The notes: a model not told the origin generated them from the letters alone. A DNA stretch of 64,000 nt from Promethearchaeota archaeon (GCA_048937405.1 JBHLNF010000001.1:64001-128000), one strand, 5' to 3'; numbered from the stretch's first letter, positions 14,911-41,347 are shown. Numbers and translations are program-made.

Positions 14911-15921
14911 ATGAGAATTTCAGATGATGAAAAAAATACAGAGATAGAATACAAGTTTAATGAATGGACTGTAAAAGATTTAAGGGAATTTGCTACAAAA
15001 AATAATATAAAAATTCCCTCAAAGTCTAAAAAGAAAGATATTATTGAGCTTCTTGAAGAGGTGGTATATCATCCTGATTTTGTTGATCGATCTCAAGAGC
15101 CAGAAGAATTGGAGGAAGAATTAATAGCTGAATTTGAAGATGAGGAGGAAGATCTTGCATTATTACGAAAAGAAAAAACTGAATTAAAATTCTGGCAACA
15201 ACCCCCTTATTCAAGTTTATTGGACAGTGAATTAGCAAAAGAATCTGAAGTTGCGTTTTATGATTTATCAAAATTAGTTGATACTTTTTTTGACAATATG
15301 CTTCACGAGGATTTGATTAATTATAAAATTTCAGGAATTGCGCTTAAAACATCTGCAACTTTGCATCATTATAAAATCTCCAGTATTATAAAAGAAGAGG
15401 AAGAAATTCAAAGAAGAGAAGAGTTAGAAAAATTCAGAGAAAGGCATGCCAGGGGTATTCCAAGAACCTTACCTCAACCAATTTCTCCTAAAGTGCAATT
15501 TGCAACTAAGGATGAATTATTTGATGCGATGAGATCTGCTATTATAGAAGTAATGCAGAATAAGGAAAAATTGAGAAGGAGGAAGATGAGAAGAGATGAA
15601 ATAAAACAACAAAGGCTTCAAAGGAAGTCTAAAGCACAGCTACCTAAAGAACTCCTAAAGCATATTAGTGGAAAGGAACAAACAATTGAAGAATTGCATG
15701 AATCGTGGTATAATAGAATAAAAGGTACAATTAACTTAAATAACGAAGAATCTAATTTTTTTGATTTAACAAATATTATTAAAGATGAAGAAAAAACTAG
15801 TTTAGGAAGGAAATTTTCTTTTGTAAGGATGTTTTTAGCTTTAATGTTCCTGTCTACAGGAAATAAATTGACGTTAAGCCAAGAAGAGGATTTTCGAAAT
15901 ATCTCAATTAATCTTAAATAA
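14911..15921 (+). CDS. scpA: Segregation and condensation protein A (kleisin) with N-terminal SAP/HeH-like domain
   Basis: PYSSLLD..YDLSKLVDTF..ISGIALKTSATLHHYK (kleisin N-domain); FVRMFLALMFL..KLTLSQEEDFRNI (C-terminal wH); immediately upstream of scpB. Confidence 0.82.
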   Translation: MRISDDEKNTEIEYKFNEWTVKDLREFATKNNIKIPSKSKKKDIIELLEEVVYHPDFVDRSQEPEELEEELIAEFEDEEEDLALLRKEKTELKFWQQPPYSSLLDSELAKESEVAFYDLSKLVDTFFDNMLHEDLINYKISGIALKTSATLHHYKISSIIKEEEEIQRREELEKFRERHARGIPRTLPQPISPKVQFATKDELFDAMRSAIIEVMQNKEKLRRRKMRRDEIKQQRLQRKSKAQLPKELLKHISGKEQTIEELHESWYNRIKGTINLNNEESNFFDLTNIIKDEEKTSLGRKFSFVRMFLALMFLSTGNKLTLSQEEDFRNISINLK

Positions 15922-15963: not shown

Positions 15964-17031
15964 ATGGAAGAAAATTTAGATGAGGAAATTGATGAAGAAC
16001 AAGAAGACATCTCTGAGGATGAGAATATAGAATCAAATAGCGAAGAGAATAGTGATTTAATTGATAAAATAGAAGAAGCAAATGAAGAAGAATCAATTGA
16101 AACATTTGAACAAATGGACTCAAATGATTCAATAATAAGTGAAGATGAAATTATAGAAGAGCAAGATATGGCTACTGAAGATTTAGAAAATCTTGAAAAT
16201 CTGGAAGAACTAGAGCAACAACCAGAAACTCTATTAAGTGATGATTCTATTGAAGAACAAAAGACGGAAATTGCTGCAAACGCAGCCAAAGCTGCGTCAG
16301 ATAGCACCGTTCTTGATGAAAAATCAATAGAAATTGAAACTAGAACTATTCAGCGGAATTTTATTGAAGCTGCTCTTTATGCTTCTGGTGGGCCTTTAAC
16401 AATTGAAGAATTATCACATAGATTAGAATTTCCCAAAAAAGAGGTGGAAATTCTAGTAAATGAATTAGCTTTCGATTATTTAGAGCGTAAAACTGCTTTA
16501 GTGATTAATCAAGTTGGTGAAGCGTATCAAATGGGTTTACGACCAGAATATGTAGAAAAAGTTTCGAAATTTGCGAAGGGTGGGGGAATTGCTGAAAGAT
16601 ACTTAAGAACCCTAACAGTAATTGCTTTAAAACAACCAATTTTAAAATCAATGGTTATAAAGTTGAGAGGTACAGGAGCGTATGAACATGTAAAATATCT
16701 TCTTGATAATGGTTTTATTGATGCTACAAAAAAAGGTAGGTCACACGAATTAACCACAACAGATAAGTATGCGGATATGTTTGGATTACCACGAGATATT
16801 CGACAATTAAAAAGTGTTATGATATCTCAATTAGGAATAGAAGAAGGAGGTCAGATTGAACCTACGGGTGAAATTGAAGAAGGAGATCAGATTGAACCTA
16901 CGGGTGAAATTGAAGAAGGAGATCAGATTGAACCTACGGGTGAAATTGAAGAAGGAGATCTAAGTGAATCTTCAGGAGAAACTGAAAATGTGAGTCAAAA
17001 TGACTCTATAAGTAATAATGAAGAAGAATAA
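15964..17031 (+). CDS. scpB: SMC-Scp complex subunit ScpB with acidic N- and C-terminal extensions
   Basis: IEAALYASGGPL, YQMGLRPEY, LRTLTVIALKQPI, LRGTGAYEHVKYL, TTDKYADMFGL. Confidence 0.92.
   Translation: MEENLDEEIDEEQEDISEDENIESNSEENSDLIDKIEEANEEESIETFEQMDSNDSIISEDEIIEEQDMATEDLENLENLEELEQQPETLLSDDSIEEQKTEIAANAAKAASDSTVLDEKSIEIETRTIQRNFIEAALYASGGPLTIEELSHRLEFPKKEVEILVNELAFDYLERKTALVINQVGEAYQMGLRPEYVEKVSKFAKGGGIAERYLRTLTVIALKQPILKSMVIKLRGTGAYEHVKYLLDNGFIDATKKGRSHELTTTDKYADMFGLPRDIRQLKSVMISQLGIEEGGQIEPTGEIEEGDQIEPTGEIEEGDQIEPTGEIEEGDLSESSGETENVSQNDSISNNEEE
16840..16960 (+). repeat. 36-bp coding tandem repeat (3 units plus a partial; EEGDQIEPTGEI)
   Basis: GAAGAAGGAG(G/A)TCAGATTGAACCTACGGGTGAAATT at 16840, 16876 and 16912, partial at 16948. 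Confidence 0.95.
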
Positions 17032-36801: not shown

Positions 36802-39800
36802 ATTTCATCTAAAGAAGAAGGAAAAATAAAACAAGGGACTATTGCTGATTATATGCGTAAGAGGACTCAGCTAGTCGGTTTTGAATTTGGTTATTGGAAG
36901 CATGTACAGTATTGTAGTGAATTTATAGACAATGCTTTGGATGCGATTGAAAGCTTTCAATGGAAGGAATTAAAAAAATCAGATTCAAAGATAAGTTTTT
37001 CATTGGATCAAGAATTATTTTTAGAAAAATTTTCTATATTAGAGGCAGCAAAGGAAGAAAAAAAGACTCAACATTTAGATAGTGAAGCTAAACATACATT
37101 AATGCAGGAACTGGGTATTGAATCTACAGAAACCAATGAATCTGTTGTAAATAAGGTAGAAATAAAAGAAGAAGAATCAGGTGAAATAACAGATAAAGAA
37201 GAATTAGAGGTTGAGGAAGAGGTTAAAAGAATTATTGATGATATGAATGAAATAATTAAACCAGTTGAGTTTATAATTGATGTAGAACCAATCGTAATAA
37301 TTCGCATCAGAGAATTTGAAGCCCCAGCTTTTTTAACATCAGAAATAAGTCAAAAAAATATCATGAGTTATTCTTTTGAGATTTTTGATAATGGCACAGG
37401 TATGTCAAAGATTGATTTAAGAAAATTTGGTAGATATCTAGCATCCTCAAAATCTATGGAACTAAAACAAACCAGAGGTAGTCAAGGATTTGGAGCACCA
37501 AGTGCCTTTAGTGATGCTCAAAATACAACAGGCAAACCAGTTATTACAGTTTCAAAGTCAATTGATAATATTTATGCAACAGTTGCAGAATTTTTTACAA
37601 CTTCGAAAAATGAAAAAAAATACTTAATTCATCCAACTGAGATTGATAGTCCTTTCTTACATGGTACTTATATCAAGTTGAATTATTTAAACGTAAGGTA
37701 TATTAGAGGATATGCTGAGAAGTATATTGAAGAAACAGCGTTTATGAATCCTCATGTTACAATAATATATATTGATCCTTTTGGAAAAGAAAAAATATAC
37801 CGTAGATTAGCGACTTCGTTCCCACCCGAGCCAAAATATGCTAAACCTCATCCTTCTTCGGTTAATATTGGAGATTTACAAGATCTAATTACAAAATCAG
37901 AAAATAAATCTATTTCAGCATTTTTACAAGATAATTTTGTCAGAATGAGTTCAAGAACCGCTAAAGAAATCGTTGATATTGCTGAGAGAGACTTGCAAGA
38001 TAAATTAAATTTTCTTATTCTAAAAGATGGGTATATAAATATAGCAAAGAAAAAAACTGATCAAATACACTTTATGAAAAATGAAAAAAGAGTCTATGGA
38101 CGTTCTGATAAACCAAGAGATAAGCTAATAATTTATCAAGTTGAATCAGAAGAACTTAAAGAAAAGTACTGGAACACGGTTCAGAATTATAATAAATATA
38201 TTAAAGATTATGAAAAAAACAATAAAGAAATCAAGAAATTAAATGATCAAATTGAAAAATCAGAGACTCAAAAAGAAATTAAAGCTATTGAAAGAAAGAT
38301 TAAAAATATCTTGAAAAATATAGAGGGAATCAGAAAAGAAAAAGATAAAATTAAGGGAATTCTAAATAATCTGTTTAAAGATGTAAAGGATGGATTGATT
38401 GAACTAAAAAAATTTAAGAATCGAACTGATTTTGAATCTTTGATTAATGAAGTTCAAATATCTAAGACAAAACCTGTTGATTTAACAAAAGAACAATTTA
38501 ATTCTCTTTTTCTTGCTTTCAAATCAATAAAGTATATGGCTCCTCCAACAGATACTGCAATACCAGTGGGTGAATCAATTTTAGAAAATACTTTAATTAA
38601 GGAAATTGGATTAAGGATTTCAGAAAGTTTAGATGATTTTGATACCCCTATTGATACTACTAATCAAACAATTGAATTACTACATGAAGAAAAAAAGAGA
38701 TTACTGATAGAAGAAGGAAAAAAGGTTCAGGATGATGAAATTGCCAACATTAAAATAGATCCAGAAGAAGTTATAAACATAAGTTCTGAGATTTTAGGAT
38801 CGATTGATATCGATGGAAGTTCTCTCGATCAACAAGTAGTAAAACAAACTATTAACGATGTTCTTACATTTTCTGATATAGAATCTATTGATAGTTATCA
38901 TGATGTATTTGAATATTTCCTTGAAACCTACACAAAAGATGATGATTTTGTATCAGCAGAGACAAGAGCACCTACAAGTGGAAAAGGATTGGCGTACGTT
39001 GTCGAAGCTGTAATGGCTTATTCAAGAAATATGGAAACACCTAAACGTGCAAGAGATGTTTTGTCTAGGTTTGTGAATAGAACTCCCAAATTAAGAGATA
39101 GTGCTGATTGTGCTATAACAAAAGCAGTTCAATCAGTAAATTGGAAAAATTATAATCTTGATAGCTATGATAATGGATTACCAAAAGGTCCAATTAAATT
39201 ATTAGTCAATGTATCTGGCCCTTTTGTACACTTAATGTTTAAATCGCAATCAAAAAATGCTCTTGCTGATGACGATGAACTGATTAAAGAAATAAAATAT
39301 TGTCTTGAAGCAATAGGAAGAAGATTACGAGTATATCTCAATAGAAGGGCAAGTCTTCGTAAAAGCGAAAAAAGGTCTAGTTTAATAGAGAAATATATTC
39401 CCATATTTGCCAAAAGTTTGTATAATATCGCATCTCAAGGGGAAAGCAAATTTAAAGCGAAGATAATGACTAAAGAAATTGAAGAATTAATGAAGGGAGC
39501 AATAGGAAAAAAATCAGTTCCCTCTCCAGTACAAGATTTTAAGATAGAAAAACATGAGATAAAAGAAGTAAAATCTGTAGAGGAAAAACAAAAGCAAATA
39601 GAAATGCCTAAAGAAGAAATACCCGTTGAGAAAGAAATCTCTCCTGAAAAACCTAAATTAGAAAAAATAATGATTTCTAAAAAATCTTTACTAAACTGGA
39701 CTGTCAAAGAACTAAAGAATTATTGTGTGGAAAAAGATATTGAATTACACTCAAAAGCAAGGAAAAATGATATTATTGAGAAAATTTTAGAATCTTTTAC

Positions 39801-40155
39801 CGAAGAGAGAATAGTAAAGAAACCAGAAGAAATAAAAAGAGAAGTATCAGAAAAAATTATAAAAAAGCCAAAACTTAAAATAACTCCTATGAAGAAAAAG
39901 CCTATTCCAACAGTACCTAAAACAATAACTGCAAAATCAAAATCGACCCAAACAACACTCCCTATTATTACTACAGATAAAATAATATCGGTATTATCTA
40001 ACGAGTGGCAAAATATAAAACACCTTATCTTTAAACTAAAGATTAAAGATATGATGGATGCCCGTTACCTTCAGTTGAAGTTAAAAGAATTGGAACGTAA
40101 AGGAGATGTATTGGTTGAATTAAAAATGGGAAGAAAACATTGGAAATTAAAATGA
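36802..40155 (+). CDS. top6B: DNA topoisomerase VI subunit B, greatly expanded (first in-frame ATG 36853; probable start upstream)
   Basis: EFIDNALDA, DNGTGM, SSK..QTRGSQGFG, HGT, PHP, RFVNRTPKL; directly upstream of top6A. The conserved N-terminal strap (KQGTIADYMRKRTQLVGFE) begins upstream of the ATG. Confidence 0.92.
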   Translation: MSSKEEGKIKQGTIADYMRKRTQLVGFEFGYWKHVQYCSEFIDNALDAIESFQWKELKKSDSKISFSLDQELFLEKFSILEAAKEEKKTQHLDSEAKHTLMQELGIESTETNESVVNKVEIKEEESGEITDKEELEVEEEVKRIIDDMNEIIKPVEFIIDVEPIVIIRIREFEAPAFLTSEISQKNIMSYSFEIFDNGTGMSKIDLRKFGRYLASSKSMELKQTRGSQGFGAPSAFSDAQNTTGKPVITVSKSIDNIYATVAEFFTTSKNEKKYLIHPTEIDSPFLHGTYIKLNYLNVRYIRGYAEKYIEETAFMNPHVTIIYIDPFGKEKIYRRLATSFPPEPKYAKPHPSSVNIGDLQDLITKSENKSISAFLQDNFVRMSSRTAKEIVDIAERDLQDKLNFLILKDGYINIAKKKTDQIHFMKNEKRVYGRSDKPRDKLIIYQVESEELKEKYWNTVQNYNKYIKDYEKNNKEIKKLNDQIEKSETQKEIKAIERKIKNILKNIEGIRKEKDKIKGILNNLFKDVKDGLIELKKFKNRTDFESLINEVQISKTKPVDLTKEQFNSLFLAFKSIKYMAPPTDTAIPVGESILENTLIKEIGLRISESLDDFDTPIDTTNQTIELLHEEKKRLLIEEGKKVQDDEIANIKIDPEEVINISSEILGSIDIDGSSLDQQVVKQTINDVLTFSDIESIDSYHDVFEYFLETYTKDDDFVSAETRAPTSGKGLAYVVEAVMAYSRNMETPKRARDVLSRFVNRTPKLRDSADCAITKAVQSVNWKNYNLDSYDNGLPKGPIKLLVNVSGPFVHLMFKSQSKNALADDDELIKEIKYCLEAIGRRLRVYLNRRASLRKSEKRSSLIEKYIPIFAKSLYNIASQGESKFKAKIMTKEIEELMKGAIGKKSVPSPVQDFKIEKHEIKEVKSVEEKQKQIEMPKEEIPVEKEISPEKPKLEKIMISKKSLLNWTVKELKNYCVEKDIELHSKARKNDIIEKILESFTEERIVKKPEEIKREVSEKIIKKPKLKITPMKKKPIPTVPKTITAKSKSTQTTLPIITTDKIISVLSNEWQNIKHLIFKLKIKDMMDARYLQLKLKELERKGDVLVELKMGRKHWKLK

Positions 40156-40165
40156 GGTAAAAAAT

Positions 40166-41347
40166 ATGGCAAAAACTAGTAAAGTTTATGATTTAAAAGC
40201 AGCAAAAAATTTATATTTAGAATATTTAGAAAAAGGAAAGGAACATAAAGAAATCGCTCTTCCACCCGATACTGTAAAAATTGATGATCTAAATAAAAAA
40301 GAGATGTTAGATCGATTATATAGACTAGTCGATAATGTTCTGGAAAGAATTTATAAAACGGGAAGACCCTCAATCGAATTACCTTCTAGATCGAGCTCTA
40401 ATATCATTTGGGATGAAGAAAATGATCTGTTATTACTTGGTAAGCAAATAATGGAAAAGCAATTTCATTCATTAACCAGCGTCGCAGATATTACTAGACT
40501 AATGAGAGTATTAGAGGTAGTTAATGAGCTTCTCATTGAAGATATTCATGCTACTAAAAGAGAAATTTTCTATACTGATGTAAATTTATTCCAAGAGCAA
40601 AAAAATAGTGATAAAAGCATCGAAGATGTTGCCACAATGTTATATACGACAAGAAATTCAACACATATAGTTGCAGCTCCAAAAGGTACATGTGTTGGAA
40701 GATTAAGAATTCGCGATAGAAATGATATTATTGATTTGGAAGGGTTAGGGAGTGGTGGATGGACAATTTCACCAATGCTTGATAACATTGAAATAATTGA
40801 GTCTGATGCTGAATTTATCTTAGTAATCGAGAAGGATGCTGCTATGATGCGATTAGCAGAGGCTAGATTTTGGAGAAAGTACCCTTGTATCTTATTGACA
40901 GCTCAGGGTGTTGGAAATGTTGCTGTACGAATGTTTCTAAAGAGATTGAGTAAAGAATTAAATTTACCAATTTTTAGTTTAGTTGATAGTGATCCTTACG
41001 GTCACTATATACATTCGGTATATCTAAGAGGTTCGAAGAGATTAAGTTATGAATCACCTTTTCTAGCGACCCCAGATATCAAATTGCTAGGGGTTTTAAC
41101 AAGAGATTTAGATAAATATAAAATTCCTCAAGAAGTCAGGATAAAAATGAATAAACAGGATGAGAAGCGTGTAAAAGATCTCTTAAACGAAGACTTCGTG
41201 AAAAAGAATAAGGCTTGGGAAGCTGATCTCAAACTAGCTCTTAAACTTAAAATAAAAGCAGAAATACAAGCATTTGCGTCTCATGGATTTAAATTTTTAA
41301 CAGATCAATACTTACCAGAGAAACTCACAACAGGTGATTGGATATAA
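40166..41347 (+). CDS. top6A: DNA topoisomerase VI subunit A (Spo11 homolog)
   Basis: TKREIFY (catalytic Tyr), VIEKDA, DSDPYG TOPRIM, KAEIQA. Confidence 0.97.
   Translation: MAKTSKVYDLKAAKNLYLEYLEKGKEHKEIALPPDTVKIDDLNKKEMLDRLYRLVDNVLERIYKTGRPSIELPSRSSSNIIWDEENDLLLLGKQIMEKQFHSLTSVADITRLMRVLEVVNELLIEDIHATKREIFYTDVNLFQEQKNSDKSIEDVATMLYTTRNSTHIVAAPKGTCVGRLRIRDRNDIIDLEGLGSGGWTISPMLDNIEIIESDAEFILVIEKDAAMMRLAEARFWRKYPCILLTAQGVGNVAVRMFLKRLSKELNLPIFSLVDSDPYGHYIHSVYLRGSKRLSYESPFLATPDIKLLGVLTRDLDKYKIPQEVRIKMNKQDEKRVKDLLNEDFVKKNKAWEADLKLALKLKIKAEIQAFASHGFKFLTDQYLPEKLTTGDWI

Follow-up and report, generated by a model that had tools for sequence, protein, structure and literature searches.

The kleisin ScpA and the B subunit of topoisomerase VI (Top6B) encoded within a 64,000-nucleotide stretch of DNA from a Promethearchaeota archaeon (GCA_048937405.1, JBHLNF010000001.1:64001-128000; the whole stretch is referred to below as the window) each bear an appendage containing what appears to be the same short motif. 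The locus raises the questions of what kind of domain this motif represents, which other proteins carry it, and whether its presence on both proteins reflects a coupling of condensin to the topoisomerase. A sequence-only reading of the window had proposed such a coupling, regarding the motif as a shared chromosome-targeting tag and possibly as an undescribed Asgard chromosome-organisation module. To our knowledge, most archaea lack a ParB-parS loading system, and we know of little that has been established about the compaction and untangling of Asgard chromosomes.

The ScpA-ScpB and Top6B-Top6A loci

The features of the two gene pairs in the window are as follows.

14911..15921, + strand: scpA (kleisin), 336 amino acids, with an N-terminal helix-extension-helix (HeH) module, an acidic linker and the kleisin core (open reading frame; SMC_ScpA match)
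14950..15066, + strand: HeH (Rho_N/SAP-type) module of ScpA, residues 14-52 (Pfam matches, orthologue conservation)
15067..15186, + strand: acidic linker from the HeH to the kleisin N-domain, residues 53-92 (lowest net charge of a 25-residue window, -13)
15964..17031, + strand: scpB, 355 amino acids, with an acidic N-terminal extension and a C-terminal 12-residue repeat, three copies (SMC_ScpB, 112 bits)
36853..40155, + strand: top6B, 1100 amino acids, with GHKL domain, long inserts, transducer and a tail of ~260 residues (Topo-VIb_trans, 100 bits, residues 696-840)
39685..39801, + strand: HeH module in the Top6B tail, residues 945-983 (Rho_N, 25.7 bits in the genome scan, above the cut-off)
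39928..40152, + strand: conserved C-terminal domain of Top6B, ~75 residues (LPIITTDKI...HWKLK), residues 1026-1100 (kept across families f1 and f2)
40166..41347, + strand: top6A, 393 amino acids (TOP6A-Spo11_Toprim, 197 bits; TP6A_N, 66 bits)

Read in the open frame of the window from its ATG start codon, ScpA presents YKFNEWTVKDLREFATKNNIKIPSKSKKKDIIELLEE at residues 14-52, past a leader of 13 residues, with the acidic linker next. The Pfam profile SMC_ScpA (PF02616) matched this frame weakly (E 0.0024; 18.4 bits against a cut-off of 24.6) and over residues 202-334 only. The gene scpB begins 43 nt 3' of scpA, an SMC hinge ORF of 1159 residues lies elsewhere in the genome (contig C7, ~540 kb), close homologues of the window ScpA are labelled as Rec8/ScpA/Scc1 kleisins in their sources, and orthologues are present across Asgard genomes, with alignments to the short forms reaching E values of ~3e-11. 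The kleisin identity of the window protein holds. The neighbouring ScpB (15964-17031) was observed to possess an acidic N-terminal extension of ~125 residues and, near its C-terminus, a 12-residue unit (GEIEEGDQIEPT) present three times in tandem.

With Top6B, the match to the GHKL domain was weak (22.7 bits against a cut-off of 25); given the match to the transducer domain and the adjacent Top6A, the gene for which begins 11 nt 3' of top6B, the identity of the protein holds. Residues 945-983 correspond to LLNWTVKELKNYCVEKDIELHSKARKNDIIEKI and are embedded in the Lys-rich tail. The C-terminal domain beyond them (LPIITTDKI...KHLIFKLKIKDMMDARYLQLKLKELERKG...HWKLK) is constant in two families, and the region between it and the transducer varies. 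A search of the C-terminal 116 residues against Pfam gave no match, and the leads obtained for the ~75-residue domain from a language-model atlas were to winged-helix families only, weak and sub-threshold. In the portion of its text available here, a study of Topo VI evolution describes Asgard Top6B as having a C-terminal domain and extra helices, with the HeH unmentioned in that portion (PMC9665070).

Other peculiarities of Top6B were observed alongside. Within its first 700 residues (36853-38950), the protein has an apparent acidic insert near residues 40-150, ahead of the GHKL match, and an apparent Lys-rich insert, probably a coiled coil, at ~400-530. In families f18 and f24, the transducer match falls within open frames of ~2290-2340 residues (loci G080:C6:521893-522585, G089:C125, G097:C30 and G139:C4), which suggests a very large, fused Top6B. 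Genome G215 has two full-length Top6B-like ORFs of 1142 and 1186 residues (C91:6793-8043; C29:18659-20044), and its second Top6B contains two nearly identical HeH copies in tandem.

Identity of the shared motif

Pairwise comparison of the ScpA and Top6B modules by BLASTP gave 35% identity over 48 residues (E 2e-8). A hidden Markov model (HMM) of the two motifs was searched against the 27,215 stop-to-stop ORFs of at least 40 residues in the genome (4.47 Mb in 29 contigs, 29% G+C); the two inputs were recovered at E 1e-23 to 1e-24 and a single additional ORF at E 9e-12, beyond which the best match had E 0.03, so that the likeness between ScpA and Top6B is not one of chance or composition. The sequence-only reading was thus upheld in placing the same motif on both proteins, with the positions and frames that it had given.

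It was also upheld in naming the motif SAP/HeH-like. In searches with whole proteins, the motif fell slightly below the Pfam cut-offs for Ish1, Rho_N and HeH; the isolated ScpA module scored 25.9 bits with Rho_N (cut-off 24.9), 25.1 with HeH (28.9) and 23.5 with Ish1 (26.6). For 21 module copies drawn from different hosts and genera, Rho_N and HeH both matched 18 at E values up to 0.01 (best 2.6e-9) and SAP matched 10, and LEM (PF03020) was absent from the Pfam matches of every copy. When the whole genome was scanned with Rho_N, Top6B (25.7 bits) and a gelsolin-domain protein, GelX (24.9 bits), were at or above the cut-off, ScpA was slightly below it (23.8 bits), and three other ORFs gave weak matches (E 0.08-0.3). 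Taking the genome scans with Rho_N, HeH and SAP together, the convincing matches (E up to 0.04 with Rho_N or HeH) were to ScpA, Top6B, GelX and a SWIM-like protein only. Among PDB sequences, the HeH profile found nothing at E up to 0.01; of the weak matches seen at E up to 10, the best were the N-terminus of Rho and the SAP domain of Ku70.

The fold of the module was predicted with AF2 on the gelsolin copy only, for which helices at residues 312-321 and 332-348 are joined by an extended basic connector (pLDDT 72-89) with disorder on either side. Without an alignment, the mean pLDDT of this carrier was 49.6 and the HeH alone was confident; the prediction was repeated with an alignment of 15 sequences. 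The net charge of the whole ScpA module is ~+2, the positive charge being gathered in the connector. As judged from its sequence, the motif is a helix-extension-helix domain of ~38 residues and of a known type, that of the Rho_N/HeH/SAP group of Pfam.

A profile search of a library of 1.84 billion proteins returned 4145 proteins at E up to 1e-3, including many that have the domain in tandem arrays; those listed were mostly tandem-repeat carriers, several of which were judged by eye to be eukaryotic- or giant-virus-like. This search shows the domain to be widespread and is uninformative for the list of Asgard hosts. The domain type has long been known; no description of an HeH fused to ScpA, Top6B or Asgard gelsolins was found in the literature.

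Other carriers of the module

Two further carriers were located in the same genome.

Contig C9:34222-35303: gelsolin-domain protein (GelX), 361 amino acids, the third carrier (two-motif HMM, E 9e-12)
Contig C7:700986-701930: SWIM-zinc-finger-like protein, 315 amino acids, a more distant copy (Rho_N match)

As a single sequence, the C9 carrier scored 17.3 with the Pfam Gelsolin profile (cut-off 21). A profile of 15 of its orthologues matched Thor ProGel (7c2f_B, E 5.4e-7) and Loki 2DGel (7whg_G, E 2.6e-5) in the PDB, and the modelled N-terminal domain was superimposed on 7c2f_B by Foldseek with an E value of 8e-7 and a TM score of 0.83. The protein is a gelsolin; in the AF2 model its gelsolin domain is followed by disorder, by a middle domain rich in beta structure and by the HeH, and its core of gelsolin domain and domain X (Gel+X, ~290 residues) is found across Asgard genomes. 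In the 315-residue carrier, a CDC...C.H motif was read as a SWIM zinc finger, and the Pfam match there covers the Rho_N part only.

In sister genera, a second, shorter gelsolin paralogue also has the module, in one or two copies, and a carrier of 784 residues has a C-terminal part that is DUF11-like by eye. Genus g14 adds a protein of ~425 residues (L096:1502-2770, - strand; L097) comprising a GIFT/ABC_transp_aux domain, to which IFT52_GIFT matches too, a coiled coil and a C-terminal HeH. Clear DNA-transaction proteins account for only two of the ~7 host families. Two other candidates, L029 and L030, were rejected as false positives of a narrow HMM made from three sequences; only 16 residues were partially matched in each, and the small ORFs concerned have a methyltransferase-like N-terminus and lack an HeH.

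Two observations on the gelsolins stand apart from the module itself. Throughout the order, the C-terminal end of the long paralogue is a conserved peptide (R.LPKIPS..DD or LPEIPK) past the HeH or a basic stretch (orthologues L001, of the window genome, L104-L107, L115 and L116), and this peptide looks like a possible short linear docking motif. The window genome also encodes another gelsolin-domain protein, of 410 residues (L109; C17:230273-231480), in which, by eye, a seemingly helical and repeat-like C-terminal half stands instead of domain X and the HeH.

Distribution and the question of coupling

With the three-sequence HMM, all 24 genomes of the genus of the window were found to have two to five module matches, in which ScpA-, Top6B- and gelsolin-sized carriers recur and the gaps fall in draft assemblies. 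A broader profile detected one to nine copies in each of the 70 genomes of its family. Among genomes drawn from the whole phylum, with a completeness of 85% or more, the module was present in 51 of 51 genomes of the family and in 5 of 149 other Asgard genomes, which identifies the fusions as the innovation of one family and not as a general Asgard trait. The notion of an 'Asgard' chromosome-organisation module was too broad for a domain nearly confined to one Loki-type family.

The statement that canonical ScpA and Top6B lack the module was borne out in the other Asgard classes by ORF lengths and alignment limits. ScpA orthologues in eight genera of the family align from residue 2-9, and the ScpA ORFs of other classes are mostly of 225-265 residues and align from residue ~88 of the query; Top6B ORFs of those classes are mostly of 610-730 residues, with matches ending near the end of the transducer. 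Within the family, Top6B has one HeH in the window, two in g15 and in the second protein of G215, three in some genomes, and none in g12, g13 and part of g14. ScpA has a single copy, which is kept in g12, in all of g14 and in every genus sampled other than g13, where the HeH is absent from both proteins.

The sequence-only reading had taken the HeH to be a dedicated tag recruiting SMC-ScpAB and Topo VI to common sites, in the manner of MukB-Topo IV or condensin-Topo II. Such a tag would agree with the presence of the module on both proteins in the genus of the window, where the Top6B tail is assembled (matches in 24 of 24 genomes), with the canonical ScpA and Top6B of other Asgard classes being without it, and with the basic appendages borne instead by both proteins in sister families, by which extra DNA contacts become an order-wide trend. 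However, the two fusions are uncoupled, g12 and part of g14 keeping the HeH on ScpA and not on Top6B, and Top6B having two to three copies elsewhere. In addition, the ScpA module is closest to that of the short gelsolin and not to that of Top6B, at least five other host families have the module, and there was no hint of sequence-specific or site-specific targeting. The 22 kb that separate scpAB from top6BA hold unrelated genes (ValRS, a DNA methylase, solute-binding proteins and CoaBC), and this spacing, conserved only among close relatives, was dismissed as a meaningful feature. Since the two fusions vary independently, unrelated hosts have the module too and its range is that of a single family, it is very unlikely that a dedicated tag serves to co-localise condensin with the decatenase.

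The same reading had treated indiscriminate attachment to unrelated metabolic proteins, or absence from orthologous ScpA and Top6B of related lineages, as evidence against its proposal, and the result was mixed on both counts. ScpA and Top6B do carry the motif, but so do two gelsolins and the SWIM-like, GIFT-domain and DUF11-like proteins; orthologous ScpA and Top6B lack the motif outside the family and in g13, and Top6B lacks it also in g12 and in some of g14, where it is retained on ScpA.

Conservation, annotation and descent

Among 40 ScpA orthologues of the family, the mean pairwise identity of the HeH was 69%, that of the C-terminal winged helix 70% and that of the leader upstream 25%. 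In a relative, GCA_030619785.1 (L117:1345-1560), ScpA is annotated as a protein of 291 residues, and the HeH is coded in frame upstream. No ATG, GTG or TTG occurs between the preceding stop and this HeH, which suggests a non-canonical start there, likely a codon such as ATT. Many ScpA versions of 284-292 residues in databases arise from an HeH left upstream of the annotated start, and many of these entries are probably truncated; as a point of annotation, late starts chosen by gene callers often leave the HeH out of the database entries for this ScpA.

A tree of 85 distinct modules groups them by host, with 7 label changes compared to a minimum of 6 and a mean of 40.9 after shuffling. The ScpA modules adjoin those of the short gelsolin (SH-aLRT 92) and not those of Top6B, which are placed loosely with the module of the SWIM-like protein. 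Built from 40 columns and with most of its forks unsupported, this weak tree fits a small number of early fusions and vertical descent thereafter, and nothing in it marks the ScpA and Top6B copies as a pair.

The restriction of the module to one family, its variable copy number, its ready loss from Top6B and its location only in disordered linkers or at termini are what would be expected of a neutral passenger, that is, of a lineage-specific repeat dispersed into linkers that tolerate it, without any function itself. Against this stand the conservation of the ScpA HeH, which equals that of the kleisin's winged helix, its retention in all of the sampled genera of the family but g13, its persistence in frame even without a canonical start codon, and the occurrence of a basic element wherever the HeH is absent. 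A passive role of this kind is considered highly improbable.

Replacement of the module by other basic segments

The most informative result of the analysis is what takes the place of the HeH. In g13, ScpA has an N-terminal appendage of equal length in which the HeH is swapped for a Zn-knuckle (MPKCPYCGK.F.RLSQHKCPKK; CPYC...H..C), and the ScpA proteins of families f2 and f24 have long K/S/T-rich tails, with up to +13 net charge per 25 residues, that resemble the tails of histone H1. A basic head of whatever kind, followed by an acidic linker, is found in nearly all ScpA orthologues of the order (heads compared in L063-L070, the orthologues of G183, G079, G166, G212, G224, G030, G025 and G028). 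Where Top6B is without an HeH, its linker is K/P- or K/S/T-rich, and the long gelsolin of g13 and f2 has K/T/R- or K/S-rich stretches at the HeH site, ahead of the LPKIPS..DD peptide. In one order of Loki-type Asgard archaea, it does stand that both the kleisin and Top6B have gained extra basic appendages that are missing in other Asgard classes. That three hosts exchange the HeH for generic basic segments argues that the job of the module is non-specific binding to a polyanion; for a kleisin and a topoisomerase, this polyanion is most simply DNA.

The ligand could nonetheless be something else, the module serving as a docking tag for a common protein partner, F-actin, RNA or acidic membranes, with ScpA and Top6B recruited together with the gelsolins. 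The carriers include two gelsolin paralogues, a GIFT-domain protein and a DUF11-like protein, and the Lys-rich replacements would bind F-actin or lipids as well; moreover, the related LEM domain binds a protein (BAF) and not DNA. However, no candidate partner was identified, the module sequences match Rho_N, HeH and SAP and not LEM, and what a kleisin and a topoisomerase subunit would most obviously bind is DNA. The Zn-knuckle found at the module site in g13 ScpA likewise speaks against such a docking role, such knuckles typically binding nucleic acid. Because gelsolins and GIFT-domain proteins are among the hosts, docking to a ligand other than DNA is kept as an alternative, though a rather unlikely one.

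Proposed role of the module

Given these considerations, the module is probably, though by no means certainly, a lineage-specific, mobile and sequence-non-specific tether for a polyanion, likely DNA, that works on each host separately. The HeH would have expanded within one family of Loki-type Asgard archaea, becoming attached, by way of flexible linkers of low complexity, to the termini or tails of several proteins that are unrelated to one another: the N-terminus of ScpA, the C-terminal tail of Top6B (zero to three copies), the C-terminus of two 1DGelX-type gelsolins (one or two copies), and the SWIM-like, GIFT-domain and DUF11-like proteins. Each host would then have passed on its own copy vertically. 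The occurrence of the module at either terminus or within linkers, in zero to three tandem copies, attests to its autonomy and mobility.

The basic connector (SKSKKK or SKARK) and the second helix would bind the polyanion, which for ScpA and Top6B would be duplex DNA, so that SMC-ScpAB and Topo VI would each gain in local affinity for DNA, or in residence time on it, independently of the other. If the two machines were co-localised, this would simply follow from both being on DNA rather than from a specific coupling. DNA as the ligand, and with it any effect of the module on the enzymes, is what we infer from the best-known members of the domain group and from the nature of the two hosts. The gelsolin, GIFT-domain and DUF11-like hosts, which have no known role with DNA, count against a DNA tether, as does the low net charge of the ScpA module taken whole, and the Lys-rich replacements count against specificity for DNA in that they would suit RNA, F-actin and acidic lipids equally.

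With gelsolins among the hosts of the HeH, one may ask whether there is a physical link between the regulation of actin and the nucleoid. If the HeH binds DNA on all of its hosts, then in this Lokiarchaeial family actin-severing or -capping proteins of the gelsolin type would be tethered to the chromosome beside SMC-ScpAB and Topo VI, and this, if true, would point to an actin-linked organisation or segregation of the chromosome in a close relative of eukaryotes. That proteins with the HeH form a nucleoid-associated set in which actin regulators are included is, at present, judged very unlikely. The basic appendages of ScpA and Top6B, be they HeH, Lys-rich tail or Zn-knuckle, nevertheless provide a simple and testable handle on how these machines hold DNA.

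Comparison with known systems

The domains of Pfam families PF07498, PF12949, PF02037 and PF10281 have the same size as the Asgard module and the same build of two helices and a basic connector. Known examples of the HeH/SAP type are the C-terminal SAP domain of Ku70, the SAP domains of PIAS and SAF-A, the HeH domains of Heh1/Heh2 and LAP2, and the N-terminus of Rho. As with the known Rho_N/HeH/SAP domains, the Asgard module is an autonomous unit joined by a flexible linker to one end of a bigger protein. It differs from them in its hosts, a prokaryotic kleisin, Top6B and Asgard gelsolins, in its scores, which are at or slightly below the Pfam cut-offs, and in the restriction of this subfamily to one Asgard family.

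With the canonical prokaryotic ScpA of SMC-ScpAB, the window ScpA shares the kleisin core, an adjacent scpB and an SMC gene in the genome, but it has an additional N-terminal appendage of ~90 residues composed of the basic head (HeH) and the acidic linker. The third carrier resembles the 1DGelX architecture described from Thorarchaeota, in which a gelsolin domain is followed by a second domain, domain X, predicted to be a coiled coil (PMC7444086). Unlike its thorarchaeal counterpart, domain X of the C9 carrier is modelled as beta-rich, and in the family of the window the Gel+X core has gained a C-terminal HeH in one or two copies.

Eukaryotic Topo II-alpha has a C-terminal region that tethers it to chromatin. 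For the plant Topo VI, the accessory proteins BIN4 and RHL1 are predicted to touch the C-terminal domain of TOPOVIB (PMC9665070). These systems and the present Top6B are alike in adding a targeting or accessory element behind the core of a type II topoisomerase by way of a disordered basic tail; neither the Topo II-alpha tether nor BIN4 and RHL1 are homologous to the Top6B element, which consists of the HeH and the ~75-residue terminal domain in cis.

The pairing of an SMC complex with a type II topoisomerase on one chromosome is common to MukB-ParC (Topo IV), condensin-Topo II and the present case. MukB and ParC are joined by a direct protein-protein contact; here, by comparison, what is shared is only a generic domain, the gains and losses of which are independent between the two proteins, with no interaction indicated.
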